A DNA stretch of 64,000 nt from the NCBI GenBank assembly GCA_019873725.1, contig JAIOAS010000001.1, positions 40,257-104,256 on the forward strand, given 5' to 3'. A program made the translations under genes and the position numbers. The DNA is from Chloroflexota bacterium. GTDB taxonomy: Bacteria > Chloroflexota > Anaerolineae > B4-G1 > SLSP01. Below are positions 47,653 through 51,603 of this stretch, in pieces (position 1 is the stretch's first letter; each line of letters begins with the position of its first letter). The notes beneath the pieces are model-generated. The model ran no database searches, was not told the origin of the DNA, and saw nothing but the letters and a program-made list of their open reading frames with translations.

Positions 47653-50600
47653 TCATCCTCTCCCCACAATCCGCTCCAACTCCGCGTCCGCCGGCGGCAC
47701 AATCCCTGAAATATCCACGAACTGGACCGGAAAAATCTCCATTTCACTTTCCTGGTTCAATGTCTTGCGTGTCCGCCGCACATAGCCGACCCCCGTGGGC
47801 ATATTGAGCACACTCAACGTCCACTTCGAGTAGTCGTCAAGGCTGGTCTTGCCCGGCAAACGCCCGGCTTTCGACACTGCAATTTCGGCGTCCTTCACCG
47901 TGCTGACCTTCTGGATAATCGCAATGCTGCTCGACGTGACCACGCCGGACGGCAACGGCTCCCAATGCTGCGCCGACGTCCACAGGTACAGCCCCAGCTT
48001 GCGCCCGCGGTCGGTGATGTTGTTCCACAACCCTGCATCCTCACCGATGGCCTGGGCGATTTCCGTCTGAGTCGAAGCGTCCGAGCGCATTACCACGTGG
48101 GCTTCCTCGACAAAGAGCAAGTGCTGTGGAATCGCCTTGCGCCGCCGCAAGTAGGACTCGTAGCGTTCGTCCGCGTGCTGGTAGATGCCAGACACCATCA
48201 GGCCAATGATGAACTGCTTCAGCGGTCCGTCATCGCCGAATTTCCCGGTAATGACCGTGGCCTTATCGGGGGCTGTCCAGTCAGCCACCGTTGTGCCGCC
48301 CGGCTGCCCGAAGGCGCGGTAGTAGACCCCCTTGGGCAGGAACTCTTCCAGCTTGTCGATGATGCGCTTGACCACGCCGGCCGTGATGTTGTCTTTGTGT
48401 TCTTCGCTGAGGGCTGTGTAACGGGCGACCAGGGCGGTGTGCAAATCCTTCATACACAGGTTCGCCGAACGCTCCGGGTACACACTGCCGTCTTCCCCGA
48501 TGACGCCCCCCGTGCGGTAAGCGTCCAGCAGCGCGCCCTTGAGCTGGTGGAAGCCGGTCGCTCCGGCGGGATACGCCAATAGCCAGTGCTTGGCGAACGC
48601 CGCCGCCCACTTCGCCGGATGCAAATACGGGCTAGGAATGCGCAACGGGTTGAACTGCAAGGGATAGTCCCACGGGTCGGTCAAGGAGTAAAACTGGAAG
48701 TCCTGCGCCGAGATCAGTTTACCCAACTTGCGCCATTCCCCGGTCGGATCGAAGACCGTCACCCCGATGCGCGGCGTCCCGCCCAGGTTCAGTGACGTGG
48801 CCGGCCCCGTGGTCGGTGCGGGGATCGGGATACCGTGCTCATCCTGACGCAGCGCATTGACGACCTGTGAGACAAACCACAGCGCGGAGTTGGACTTGCC
48901 GGAGCCGGAATCCCCGACGATGACCGCGTGCATTAACTCGTCGGCGCGGAAACGATGCACGTTGTTGGGATCGGGGTGCAAGTTCACGTCCAGCACCGTG
49001 CCCAACGCGATTTCCCCCTGGGTGCGCCGGTGCGACAAGTCGTCCGGCCAGGCATCCAGCGAGGCGGAAATTGTGCCGTCCGAGATGCGGATCGGGTGGA
49101 CGAGCGCCGCCAACTCGTTGGCCGTCAGTGTTTGCGCGTGGCGCAGCGTATCAAACGGCCCGGCGTCTTCCGTGCGGGCGTCGAAGTCCAGCGTGATGGC
49201 CCGTTGCCAGAGGTCTTTGTCCCCGGCGCGCGCGGCGACGGGCACGACGACGTTCTCCTCACGCATCGCCGCAATGGACGCGGCGGCTAACCGTTCCAGC
49301 CGAGCTGCGTCAGGGGCCAGCAGTGTCACCTGCGTCAGGAACAGCCCCGTGTCCAGCCCCGCGCTCAAGCGTCGAACCTGCTGGTCGAGTAGTTGTGCCA
49401 CCAGGTCGCGCTGCGCGTCCACGGTCTGCCGCGCGAAGGCCAGGCCCGCCACGAGTGAGCCGCCGGACGGCCCCATCACGCCGCGTGTCGTCACCTGGGT
49501 CGTGCCCATATTCGCCACCGTTGCCCCGACCTGTTCGGCGGCCTGGGCCTGCACGTACTCGCGTCCCTCGCCGATCATCGCCTCCTGCCGCGCTTCGGCC
49601 CCATCCACCTGCTCCTGCGAGTTGCGGTAGCCGTCAAAGGACTCACTGCGGAAGCCGTTGACGAAGCGATGAGTCTCGCGTTGCAGGGCGCGGTCGGCCA
49701 CAACCGTATCCTGCTGCGAGAGATGCCCACTGCGCTGCCCGGTTTCGGCATAGCTGCCGCCAAAGGTGCGGGCAAAGTGTTCGACACCTTGATAGCCGTC
49801 GCGGGTGGCCTGCTGCCAGGCTGCGTTCTGATCCACGGCGCTTTCCCAGGCGCGCTGCGCCTCACGGTCGGTATGGCTGGCGTCCTGGTAGGCTTCGCTG
49901 TAGCCATACGCGGTCTGACTCGACCGTACCCCGCCGCCGCTGCGCCATTCCGACGTCTGCACCGTCTCGTTGCCCTGCCAGGTCTGGCCCAGCGCCTCTT
50001 GTTGGTTGCCGCTGCGGTCATAGGAGGTATCGGCCTGTTGGATTCCGCCCGTGAGTGCACTCTGTTGGTTACTCCGGTCGGTGTCCAGGCTACCGGTGAC
50101 GTCGGCCAGTTCGTGGTCGCGGGACTCGTACAGATTGCCGCGTTCCCCGGCCTGCATCGTTTCACCCCCGCCAATACCAAAGAGGCGCGGGGAAAGGCTG
50201 CCTTCGACGCCCTGTTCAGCGTAGGTCTGCATCTGCGCCCCGTCGCCCTGTACGGCGCTTTCCGTGTTGCGCACAAAGCCTTCGCTGCTCGCCTCGTTGC
50301 TAAACCCGATTTCGGCCTGTTGGTAGTCGCCCTGGGTGTGCTCGTTGCCCGCGCCGCTGAACGACCGCTCGGTCTGTTCGTTGTAGCCCCCTTCCCAAGT
50401 GCGGCTACTGCCTCCGGTATAACGTTCGCCAACGCTGAAGTTCTCGACGCTGGAACGACTTCCGGCCCCGGAACGCACGCCACTGACCCGTTCGTTGATA
50501 CTCTCGATGCTGTACAACTGGCCCGTCTCGTCGGTGTGCTGCTGGCGGTTGCCTTGTTGCGTCGCATCGCGCGCGCCCTGGGTTTGCATCACGCCGGCCT

Positions 50601-51603
50601 CGCTGCCACTGTAGGAACGGGAGAGACTGTAGTTGTCAGCATAGTCGCGTTCCAGGTTGACCTGGCTTTCTTCGTGTTCGTTGATGCGTTCGCTGATGCG
50701 CTGCCTGTCGGCGTAGGCGGTGTTTTCCTGCCCCTGATGCGCCTCGTGGCTCGCGGTCTCACGACGATAGGCGCTGACTGCATCGGACTGTCCGGCGGCC
50801 AGGCGATGGGCGTTTTGTTCGGTACGCAGGCGTTGGTCGGCCCGCGTCACCTGCGTCGCGCGATGCGTCTGCTCGCTGAACACCGCCACCGGATTCAGGA
50901 ACAGCGGTAGCACCGCACTCACGTTGGCCGACTCGCTCTGCTTCACCTTGGAGGCGAAGTAGCTCAGGGCTTGGGCAGTGTCGGCCAGCATCCGGCGGAT
51001 GTCCAGCGCGTGCAAGGGATGCGCCAGTGTCAGCACGGCGAACGGCTCCCCGGCCAGCGCCGCAGCGATGACTTCGAGCTGTTCTTGCGCGTCGGTGGTG
51101 ACCAGTTGGTTGATGCCGTGGCTTGATCCCATACCTGGGGCAAGGCGCGGCACGATCTGACCAATCAGGGAAGCGGTGTAGCGACAAGTCCACAAGTGAT
51201 TGTACAAGGCCGAGGCTTCATCGGCGGATAGCAAGGTAAAGCGCGACTGCCGGAAACGCCCTTGCAGCGCCGCAACCAGGCGCGCCGAGTTGAGCGCGGC
51301 GGCTTGCACAGCCTGTTCCTGGGTCGCTGCCGTTGCCACTCCACCGTAGACCTGGACGAGGCCCAGTTCCGGCACATTGGCCAGGCCAAAGGCGGCAGCC
51401 GTGTTGCGCGCGCCTTGTGGGTCATACAGGCTGCTCACCACATCGTCGGTGAGTTCCAGGTGTGTCCGTGCATGGCGGTAGGGCTTGCGCAGGATGCGTA
51501 GCGCGTGTGGCGACCACGCCCGCCATCCGTCAGGCAAGGCCCAGGCATAGGCGTGCAGCGATGCACCGTCGGGGGTGAGGGTCATTGAGAAGGTGTTGTC
51601 CAT
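47653..51603 (-). CDS. HerA/FtsK-superfamily P-loop ATPase with a very long Q/S/G/E-rich disordered central region (1316 aa)
   Basis: C-terminal Walker A HAVIVGDSGSGKSNSALW and Walker B-like HLLFVEEAHVV. ~450 aa of low-complexity sequence lie between an N-terminal globular region and the ATPase. Confidence 0.5.
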   Translation of the reverse strand: MDNTFSMTLTPDGASLHAYAWALPDGWRAWSPHALRILRKPYRHARTHLELTDDVVSSLYDPQGARNTAAAFGLANVPELGLVQVYGGVATAATQEQAVQAAALNSARLVAALQGRFRQSRFTLLSADEASALYNHLWTCRYTASLIGQIVPRLAPGMGSSHGINQLVTTDAQEQLEVIAAALAGEPFAVLTLAHPLHALDIRRMLADTAQALSYFASKVKQSESANVSAVLPLFLNPVAVFSEQTHRATQVTRADQRLRTEQNAHRLAAGQSDAVSAYRRETASHEAHQGQENTAYADRQRISERINEHEESQVNLERDYADNYSLSRSYSGSEAGVMQTQGARDATQQGNRQQHTDETGQLYSIESINERVSGVRSGAGSRSSVENFSVGERYTGGSSRTWEGGYNEQTERSFSGAGNEHTQGDYQQAEIGFSNEASSEGFVRNTESAVQGDGAQMQTYAEQGVEGSLSPRLFGIGGGETMQAGERGNLYESRDHELADVTGSLDTDRSNQQSALTGGIQQADTSYDRSGNQQEALGQTWQGNETVQTSEWRSGGGVRSSQTAYGYSEAYQDASHTDREAQRAWESAVDQNAAWQQATRDGYQGVEHFARTFGGSYAETGQRSGHLSQQDTVVADRALQRETHRFVNGFRSESFDGYRNSQEQVDGAEARQEAMIGEGREYVQAQAAEQVGATVANMGTTQVTTRGVMGPSGGSLVAGLAFARQTVDAQRDLVAQLLDQQVRRLSAGLDTGLFLTQVTLLAPDAARLERLAAASIAAMREENVVVPVAARAGDKDLWQRAITLDFDARTEDAGPFDTLRHAQTLTANELAALVHPIRISDGTISASLDAWPDDLSHRRTQGEIALGTVLDVNLHPDPNNVHRFRADELMHAVIVGDSGSGKSNSALWFVSQVVNALRQDEHGIPIPAPTTGPATSLNLGGTPRIGVTVFDPTGEWRKLGKLISAQDFQFYSLTDPWDYPLQFNPLRIPSPYLHPAKWAAAFAKHWLLAYPAGATGFHQLKGALLDAYRTGGVIGEDGSVYPERSANLCMKDLHTALVARYTALSEEHKDNITAGVVKRIIDKLEEFLPKGVYYRAFGQPGGTTVADWTAPDKATVITGKFGDDGPLKQFIIGLMVSGIYQHADERYESYLRRRKAIPQHLLFVEEAHVVMRSDASTQTEIAQAIGEDAGLWNNITDRGRKLGLYLWTSAQHWEPLPSGVVTSSSIAIIQKVSTVKDAEIAVSKAGRLPGKTSLDDYSKWTLSVLNMPTGVGYVRRTRKTLNQESEMEIFPVQFVDISGIVPPADAELERIVGRG

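Follow-up and report, generated by a model that had tools for sequence, protein, structure and literature searches.

This study focused on a 64,000-nucleotide (nt) stretch of the genome of a Chloroflexota bacterium (contig JAIOAS010000001.1, positions 40,257 to 104,256; hereafter the window), and on a gene within it that encodes a three-part ATPase of 1316 amino acids (aa). An initial annotation, made from the sequence alone, had taken the product for a HerA-family enzyme with a disordered, possibly phase-separating linker, and had raised the possibility that it belongs to a conflict island formed by its neighbours. The analyses reported here point elsewhere. With a probability of roughly 0.55, the protein serves as the large ATPase encoded by a Tad/Flp (type IVc) pilus cluster, carries a fold-back stalk and works as a membrane-docked, polymer-moving motor, and is not a component of the adjoining genes for NOD-like receptors (NLRs) and a diversity-generating retroelement (DGR). 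Together with a small polytopic membrane protein it heads a conserved (RcpC)-TadZ-CpaF-TadB-TadC-TadE operon in Chloroflexota and Clostridia. Judged by its profile match and its homologues, it is a divergent Chloroflexota branch of the uncharacterised family NF033849. Feature coordinates are given in Table 1.

Linkage to Tad/Flp pilus operons

Three Chloroflexota relatives, at loci L001, L003 and L005 (53%, 42% and 40% identity), have a common gene order: the small membrane-protein gene, the ATPase, a DUF4352 protein, proteins of about 240, 180 and 320 aa, a TadZ/CpaE-like ATPase, CpaF, two T2SSF proteins (TadB/C), small pilin-sized genes and TadE. The Tad-operon genes come directly after the ATPase gene in all three, and Tad linkage is also seen at a further Chloroflexota locus, L008. 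The window carries the whole of this gene set with order and strand alike, split between 28294-38577 and 51688-52089. In L001, L003 and L005 the small membrane-protein orthologues (37-50% identity) are encoded directly upstream of the ATPase, where the gene abuts or overlaps the ATPase start, and in these relatives the two genes are translationally coupled. A small membrane-protein gene likewise precedes the ATPase gene in Clostridial loci.

With an alignment of the Clostridial subfamily as query, 34 loci were fetched from species-representative genomes, 21 of them with at least 6 kb of downstream DNA; these 21 are mostly from Lachnospiraceae, Oscillospiraceae and Ruminococcus, with others from Neobacillus, Anaerolineae and Chloroflexia. 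Downstream and on the same strand, a TadZ-like gene was found in 19 and CpaF in 17, and same-strand linkage to tadZ, cpaF, tadB and tadC is conserved, as in a Tad/Flp cluster. Family members were carried by only two of 72,556 plasmid records, both of them megaplasmids (Ruminococcus albus 7, 420 kb; Alkaliphilus sp. B6464, 436 kb), and each encodes, in this order, the small membrane protein, the annotated 'serine-rich protein', an RcpC-like protein, a TadZ-like ATPase, CpaF, TadB, TadC, Flp, a prepilin peptidase and TadE. A tblastn search of 50,697 phage records with the family gave no match. In Clostridia a DnaE-type polymerase and a primase lie near the ATPase module, and an SSB gene is found about 3 kb upstream in 16 loci. 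The Clostridial loci suggest a module that rides a large mobile replicon with its own Tad system. Among the Chloroflexota loci, only L001 shows SSB linkage, the gene lying within the operon.

The initial annotation had named, as the outcome that would count against it, a family with an unrelated conserved context. This is what the neighbourhood comparison returned, the conserved context being the Tad operon.

Cargo hotspot beside the ATPase gene

The ATPase gene does lie where the initial annotation placed it, between a DGR module (reverse transcriptase (RT), Avd and two NACHT/STAND-FGE targets) and an upstream set encoding EAD9-CHAT, EAD9-bDLD1 and NB-ARC-TPR proteins. When the window is compared with L008, whose gene is 91% identical, homology ends at the ATPase stop codon and resumes about 150 nt upstream of the DUF4352 gene, and the interval that occupies 8.9 kb in the window is 394 nt in L008 (5884-6277). 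Three other relatives, 88-94% identical, hold different cargos at this site: TPR and EAD7-bDLD1 genes on the opposite strand in L006 (14016-23661), a SpoIID/Big-domain set in L046 (~13970-23783), and TPR-CHAT and ABC genes in L047 (~7464-14941). The site between the ATPase and DUF4352 genes is found in five states among genes at least 88% identical, one of them empty (L008). Variation is just as great upstream of the small membrane-protein gene, where L006 and L046 have other STAND sets. Since the cargo differs among close relatives and is missing from L008, the adjacency of the ATPase and the NLR/DGR genes is a property of a cargo hotspot, and there is no conserved co-occurrence of the ATPase with STAND, EAD or DGR genes.

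A defence-type HerA within an NLR/DGR conflict island has become very improbable on this evidence, and for practical purposes the idea is refuted. The gene adjoins bDLD1, NACHT-FGE, DGR and EAD9-CHAT genes, PADLOC gave weak HerA matches to the protein, and close relatives, too, have NLR-type cassettes flanking the gene on either side; however, the neighbours differ in every close relative and one has none, the genes that stay beside the ATPase across two phyla are those of the Tad system, and the gene is absent from the phage records. No nuclease, Sir2, DUF4297 or NurA partner of the kind that, along with an N-terminal HAS-barrel, marks HerA proper is adjacent in the window or in the relatives' loci. 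Proximity to the NLR/DGR genes is therefore not evidence of function. What has been identified is a hotspot for cargo swapping inside a pilus operon, and in place of a conflict-island gene stands a part of the monoderm Tad systems that is conserved, so far unexplained and very unusual in its sequence architecture.

A leader-like element of about 135 nt stands before each half of the split operon. The two copies are 75% identical and are conserved in L006 and L008. The element has a TATAAT-like box, a CCGCAGG..CCTGCGG hairpin and a second, GC-rich, terminator-like hairpin (AAAAGGGGAGGAC..GTCCTCCCCTTTT), and an Rfam scan of it gave no family. It may be a shared promoter/attenuator, or a recombination substrate that creates the hotspot. 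A second insertion in the pilus operon consists of recombinase-domain open reading frames (ORFs) between tadZ and cpaF, both in the window (33164-33961) and in L008 (11024-12891).

Relationship to the NF033849 family

The ORF begins with ATG, preceded at 7 nt by a GGAGG Shine-Dalgarno sequence, and its extent, length and the motifs GDSGSGKS and FVEEAHVV are as first annotated. The NCBIfam model NF033849 (ser_rich_anae_1, 'serine-rich protein') matches the protein at an E value of 3e-105 and 352.7 bits. The match is full-length and collinear, joining protein residues 35-1312 to model positions 29-1162 of 1163, and the family layout of an N-terminal domain, a low-complexity middle and a C-terminal ATPase is present in that order. 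The score is below the curated cut-off of 650 bits and the middle is not Ser-rich (10% against a family median of 22.7%); the Ser-rich relatives are true NF033849 members, scoring 667-1444 bits. A Pfam scan of the window protein gave no match.

There are 22 full-length homologues, 40-95% identical, from Chloroflexus and Anaerolineae metagenome bins. A word-indexed search was swamped by low-complexity and P-loop words (4 hits with the C-terminal domain, 7 with an N-domain profile), and the family was instead searched exhaustively with a profile built from the C-terminal 627 aa. At E <=1e-3 this profile matched 489 cluster representatives, of which 76 passed E <=1e-30; the long matches are nearly all of 1000-1860 aa with the ATPase at the C-end, and 102 of the 148 representatives retrieved also have the N-terminal domain. 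Proteins P0023-P0026 (550-695 aa) are 59-88% identical to the C-terminal ATPase part only. Gene calls that were split or cut short could account for them, as could a short form that occurs naturally; one of the four lies on a contig of 158 kb.

A secreted serine-rich adhesin was considered and ruled out: the protein lacks both a signal peptide and an anchor, and its ATPase sits at the C-end. Full-text literature searches found no paper on the NF033849 family or on a HerA-like ATPase in Tad loci, and a preprint on the 'Hodor' megaplasmid proved unrelated. The family has a database name and no described function; its ATPase is a variant within a known superfamily.

ATPase and N-terminal domains

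The C-terminal part has the FtsK-HerA motifs: its Walker A fits GxxGxGK[ST], its Walker B is acidic, and a conserved sensor Gln follows one strand further on. It resembles solved members of that superfamily at significant profile or fold level. K903 (Walker A), E1166 and E1167 (Walker B) and Q1212 (sensor) are invariant in 34 diverse relatives, and because they are so the ATPase is probably active. Among solved chains, a profile of the family ATPase finds HerA/DUF87 first (2e-15 to 1e-12), then TdpA, DptH and archaeal HerA; these searches returned no VirB4 chain at E values up to 1. Pfam assigned DUF87 to 12 of the 34 relatives, HerA_C to 3, FtsK_SpoIIIE to 3 and AAA_10 to 2, and the VirB4-specific families to none. 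An AlphaFold2 (AF2) model of the ATPase part is poor overall, with a predicted local distance difference test (pLDDT) score of 46, and has a confident core. The domain belongs to the HerA/VirB4/coupling-protein clade.

The N-terminal domain was modelled by AF2 from 28 sequences at a pLDDT of 78.6. Its best structural match is the N-terminal region of TrwK/VirB4, followed by EccE of type VII secretion. A Foldseek search of the domain against the PDB gave nothing significant, though many of the top hits were TrwK chains, and the modelled likeness to VirB4 is to be taken as a lead and not as a result.

A symmetric middle region with a central tip

Between these domains, at aa ~240-700, lies a middle region of about 460 aa made up of G (12%), Q (11%), A (11%), S (10%), E (9%), R (8.5%), T (7%) and Y (4%), with 8-20% hydrophobic residues per 50-aa block against 26-32% in the flanks. 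It is, as had been noted, of low complexity and non-repetitive at residue level: self-BLAST and autocorrelation of the window protein's middle showed no internal repeat and no residue-level periodicity. Two residues are excluded from it: Pro occurs once where 24.8 would be expected (P = 2e-10), and Lys is absent where 14 would be expected (P = 7e-7). In the 102 relatives with both end domains, the stretch between them is 152-715 aa long (median 381), with medians of 14.5% hydrophobic residues, 22.7% Ser, 0.2% Pro and 0.65% Lys. Within the Chloroflexota clade, identity at the far end is 31-41% in the middle against 44-47% in the end domains, and the middle aligns with 0 gap columns across 450 aa at 39% identity, keeping both length and register. 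Within aa 251-700, 53 residues are invariant; G (17) and R (12) are the most frequent of these, followed by E and Y (6 each).

Conservation in the window clade follows a strict period of two. Pairs of invariant columns number 26 at lag 2 and 1 at lag 1 (6.5 +/- 2.3 when shuffled), then 22, 18 and 20 at lags 4, 6 and 8 and 2, 1 and 0 at lags 3, 5 and 7. The end domains were checked for this pattern and do not have it. Conserved columns fall on odd residues ahead of the centre and on even residues beyond it, with a single flip at the motif PRLFGIGGG, which holds the sole Pro of the middle region. In an 11-sequence alignment reaching down to ~29% identity, positions at least 80% conserved are 12 odd and 1 even in arm 1 and 1 odd and 16 even in arm 2. 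Clostridial members have the same period in their composition, as (S/G-x)n with Ser or Gly at every second position over hundreds of residues and an S/G autocorrelation of +/-0.5-0.65 out to lag 12. In the window protein this autocorrelation is ~0, and the period is seen in conservation alone because the middle is rich in Q, G, E and R and is not (S/G-x)n.

The symmetry extends across the family. A single phase flip is present in 45 of the 102 representatives, at 0.49-0.58 of the region, and 29 more have one unflipped phase. In Clostridial members the motif at the flip is short, hydrophobic and Gly-rich, often with Pro (PLGIGIGSGG, PLGVGGGGG, GGIGIFNAGG, LGIGPV). When each middle region was scored solely for its most hydrophobic/Gly/Pro 9-mer, this fell within the 0.5-0.6 decile for 94 of the 103 proteins, with regions of 147-710 aa. 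The distances from motif to end domains, that is, the lengths of the two arms, co-vary over a six-fold range (r = 0.95, slope 0.92), arm 2 measuring 61-348 aa. On a normalised axis, Pro makes up 0.0% of the outer thirds and 2.9% of the central 5% bin only; there the share of hydrophobic residues climbs from 12% to 22% and that of Gly from 14% to 25%, and the share of Ser+Thr drops from 37% to 20%. In the window clade the smoothed profiles are mirrored about residue ~474 (helix-formers, r = 0.68-0.75; Gly/Ser, 0.43-0.48; parallel controls, -0.06 and -0.19).

Antiparallel pairing of the arms would predict equal, co-varying arms and a conserved apex, and the two arms probably form a fold-back stalk. 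The period of two and the exclusion of Pro point to extended, beta-type strands; that the stalk is a beta-ribbon is conceivable, at somewhat less than even odds. The putative symmetric period-2 stalk and the linkage of the ATPase to a Tad system appear undescribed so far.

Proposed mechanism and alternatives

In the proposed mechanism, the arms would pair antiparallel as a long beta-type stalk, and their pairing would place the N-domain beside the ATPase in a VirB4-like two-domain body. Subunits would assemble into an oligomer or ring, as in HerA/VirB4 relatives, which the N-domain and the small membrane protein would dock to the membrane near TadZ, CpaF and TadB/C. The ring would spend ATP to move a polymer, and the hydrophobic tip would project tens of nanometres from it. 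The stalk could be a rigid spacer or a probe with a membrane-seeking tip. DNA is tentatively favoured as the substrate, because the characterised relatives in the HerA/VirB4 clade mostly pump DNA and because SSB, DnaE and primase genes travel with the Clostridial module, and once (SSB, in L001) with a Chloroflexota one. Weak CedD matches also count for DNA, and Tad pili are reported to be needed for transformation in another monoderm, Micrococcus luteus (PMC8467076).

Several observations weigh against this reading. A scan of mirrored hydrophobicity for antiparallel pairing gave no consistent register peak, and reversed and forward alignments of the arms did not differ (P = 0.95). The composition of the middle falls on the disordered side of the charge-hydropathy line, with both flanks on the folded side. 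One sub-group of the Clostridial loci has no CpaF within 10 kb; there, genes for DUF4046, a PP2C phosphatase, a MoxR-type AAA and a VWA protein come after those for the ATPase and a TadZ-like protein (a Ser/Thr phosphatase beside a Ser-rich protein may itself be meaningful). No gene of the operon was recognised as coding for a membrane channel for DNA, and no SSB gene is present in the window or in most Chloroflexota loci. Finally, the substrates of VirB4 and of the FtsK-like EccC are pilins or proteins rather than DNA.

One alternative is a VirB4- or EccC-like ATPase that services the pilus or exports protein, for example by extracting or inserting Flp pilin or by feeding a protein through the Tad apparatus, with no part for DNA; we regard this as doubtful, though it is a rival to be taken seriously. 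The TrwK/VirB4 and EccE matches of the N-domain would fit it, as would the small membrane protein encoded directly upstream, as VirB3 is for VirB4, and the lack of SSB in Chloroflexota loci other than L001. It would fit, too, that Chloroflexales have Tad pili only and no dedicated retraction ATPase (PMC7332563). Against it, CpaF already drives both extension and retraction of Tad pili in the systems studied (PMC6920026). Nor does the ATPase match VirB4 in sequence, its hits going to HerA/DUF87, DptH and TdpA, and VirB6, VirB8 and VirD4 were not among the ORFs examined.

The charge-hydropathy result bears on another alternative, in which the middle is a disordered, self-associating linker with R/Y/G 'stickers', making the protein a scaffold or condensate hub that positions Tad machines while the ATPase regulates assembly. 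Low hydropathy, the predominance of G, R, E and Y among the invariant residues, the lack of residue-level repeats in the window protein and the low AF2 confidence at the domain edges would all agree with it. A disordered linker is, however, expected to show rapid turnover of insertions and deletions, no positional periodicity and tolerance of Pro. Here length and register are kept without indels, Pro, usually enriched in disordered regions, is excluded family-wide, and conservation keeps a strict period of two with one central flip between mirror-symmetric arms that co-vary 1:1, none of which a passive or sticky linker needs. On balance this alternative is unlikely, and of the original description of a disordered, phase-separating linker only the low-complexity, non-repetitive composition is upheld.

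A bolder extension of the fold-back motor is improbable. In it, the arms of the ring's subunits might together form a Ser/Gly-lined tube with a hydrophobic tip, an envelope-spanning conduit that passes DNA or protein between monoderm cells with Tad pili and serves as the transfer apparatus of the Clostridial, DnaE/SSB-bearing, megaplasmid-like elements. If true, it would be a stem like that of anthrax protective antigen (PA) but about ten times longer, arms of 61-348 residues corresponding to about 20-110 nm when extended.

To our knowledge, Tad pili have been studied almost entirely in diderms, whose machine is considered to run on one ATPase, CpaF. That a further, giant ATPase of the HerA/VirB4 clade heads Tad operons in two monoderm phyla points to an unrecognised pilus-coupled activity, maybe the transfer of DNA or protein. 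Filamentous Chloroflexota have no pili other than Tad pili, which are placed at cell junctions. Composition alone would label the middle region 'disordered', yet the constraints on it are those that mark a very long paired structure, and no counterpart of it has been described.

Other features of the window

The two variable repeats (VRs) of the DGR are 85-88% identical to its template repeat (TR), and since they end two different NACHT/STAND-FGE genes, one retroelement diversifies two NLR-like sensors. About 11 tandem copies of an 8-nt unit (GCGAATCA-like) occupy 43969-44056, between the DGR RT gene and the NACHT-FGE gene. An ORF of 160 aa for a bacterial death-like domain (bDLD1) protein (47045-47527) overlaps by 182 nt the TTG-started NACHT-FGE ORF (44167-47226); these may be a separate adaptor and sensor, or a single bDLD1-NACHT-FGE gene that has been frameshifted. 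The genes upstream of the membrane-protein gene form an effector/adaptor/STAND set, a type described for multicellular bacteria. Further away, the minus strand has a block of lower GC content (0.49-0.56) at ~4766-19273, with genes for BrxL, a PglZ-like protein, a PAPS-reductase-domain protein and two DUF4007 proteins, along with two large proteins (1401 and 1145 aa) that have no Pfam match; from its gene content it looks like a BREX-type (type 4-like) defence locus.

Table 1. Coordinates of the ATPase gene, its parts, the surrounding operon and other features. Positions refer to the window unless a locus is named.
Feature	Position	Strand	Basis or remark
ATPase gene, 1316 aa, three-part	47653..51603	minus	ORF list; collinear NF033849 match; full-length homologues
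N-terminal alpha/beta domain, aa 1-~225	50929..51603	minus	
Arm 1, aa ~240-471	50191..50886	minus	Conserved columns on odd residues (parity)
Central tip motif PRLFGIGGG, aa 472-480	50164..50190	minus	Top hydrophobic/Gly/Pro 9-mer, fraction 0.51
Arm 2, aa ~481-700	49504..50163	minus	Conserved columns on even residues (parity); mirror image of arm 1 in composition, centred on aa ~474
C-terminal HerA/VirB4-clade P-loop ATPase, aa ~701-1316	47656..49503	minus	Profile and structural matches; invariant residues
Walker A GDSGSGKS, aa 897-904	48892-48915	minus	
Walker B (EE) FVEEAHVV, aa 1164-1171	48091-48114	minus	
DRGRKLG	47992-48012	minus	
Sensor TSAQHW	47962-47979	minus	
133-aa membrane protein, 3-4 hydrophobic segments	51688..52089	minus	Upstream partner of ATPase gene; orthologues in L001, L003, L005
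Rest of Tad/Flp operon	28294..38577	minus	Pfam; one-to-one, same-order orthologues in L001, L003, L005
DUF4352 protein	37939-38577	minus	
Two small ParA-like proteins	37207-37938, 36659-37213	minus	
Putative RcpC	35651-36604	minus	Assigned by position only
TadZ/CpaE	34124-35626	minus	
Recombinase ORF	33164-33961	minus	Inserted
CpaF	31827-33266	minus	
Prepilin-peptidase-like ORF	31082-32146	minus	
TadB	30153-31037	minus	
TadC	29248-30156	minus	
TadE	28294-28752	minus	
Leader-like ~135-nt element, copy 1	52182..52313	minus	Upstream of membrane-protein gene
Leader-like ~135-nt element, copy 2	38542..38676	minus	Upstream of DUF4352 gene, far side of insertion
Strain-specific 8.9-kb insertion (bDLD1 ORF, NACHT-FGE, RT, Avd, TR, STAND-FGE)	38732..47664	minus	blastn against L008 and L006
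DGR TR	42301-42421		
DGR VRs	39318-39438 and 44194-44314		3' ends of two NACHT/STAND-FGE genes
Trypco2, EAD9-CHAT, EAD9-bDLD1, 1231-aa NB-ARC-TPR	52446-58745		Upstream of membrane-protein gene
CpaF-less Clostridial sub-group locus	L012 14119-22495		Also L019, L022-L024, L035, L040
DnaE, primase, SSB and two conserved proteins (~275 aa, ~500 aa) ahead of module	L010 2774-11456; L011 1450-12069; L013 1226-9886		Two megaplasmids and chromosomal contigs

Comparison with known systems

The window protein shares with the Clostridial NF033849 proteins the three-part layout, the central tip, the equal arms, the upstream small membrane-protein gene and the Tad context, and differs in its Q/G/E/R-rich middle and its score. 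The Chloroflexota operon has, in addition, the DUF4352 protein and two small ParA-like proteins, and is without the DnaE/SSB module of the Clostridial one. A cryo-tomography paper on Chloroflexales names only rcpC-tadZABC, tadEEG and flp (PMC7332563).

Compared with the HerA (DUF87) proteins of Sir2, DUF4297 or NurA systems and with DptH/TdpA, the window protein adds an N-terminal domain and a putative stalk of 460 aa. It resembles VirB4/TraC in joining an N-terminal domain to a C-terminal ATPase, with VirB4 among the top structural matches of both, and resembles the VirB3-VirB4 pair in having a small membrane protein encoded just upstream. Unlike VirB4/TraC, it shows no similarity at sequence level, its partner machinery is the Tad pilus, a giant insertion separates its two domains, and no relaxase, VirB6, VirB8, VirD4 or other gene of a type IV secretion system is among the ORFs scanned.

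FtsK/SpoIIIE belong to the same superfamily, although only weak matches at the level of Walker A were found. Escherichia coli FtsK has a comparable layout of a targeting N-terminal part, a long low-complexity middle and a C-terminal motor; its N-terminal part is itself a membrane domain, in which it differs from the window protein. The FtsK linker is rich in Pro and Gln, and we know of no description of it as a symmetric two-arm element.

For the stalk, there are analogies without homology, and the pairing of the arms has no support at residue level. In profile searches with an arm, the B components of binary toxins came up as sub-threshold hits (E 0.45-0.98). SMC and Rad50 proteins have equal antiparallel arms that meet at an apex, as the window protein may, but with a heptad repeat in place of the period of two. 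Stems of the anthrax PA type share the alternating small residues and the hydrophobic, Gly-containing tip, on arms about one tenth as long as those of the window protein.

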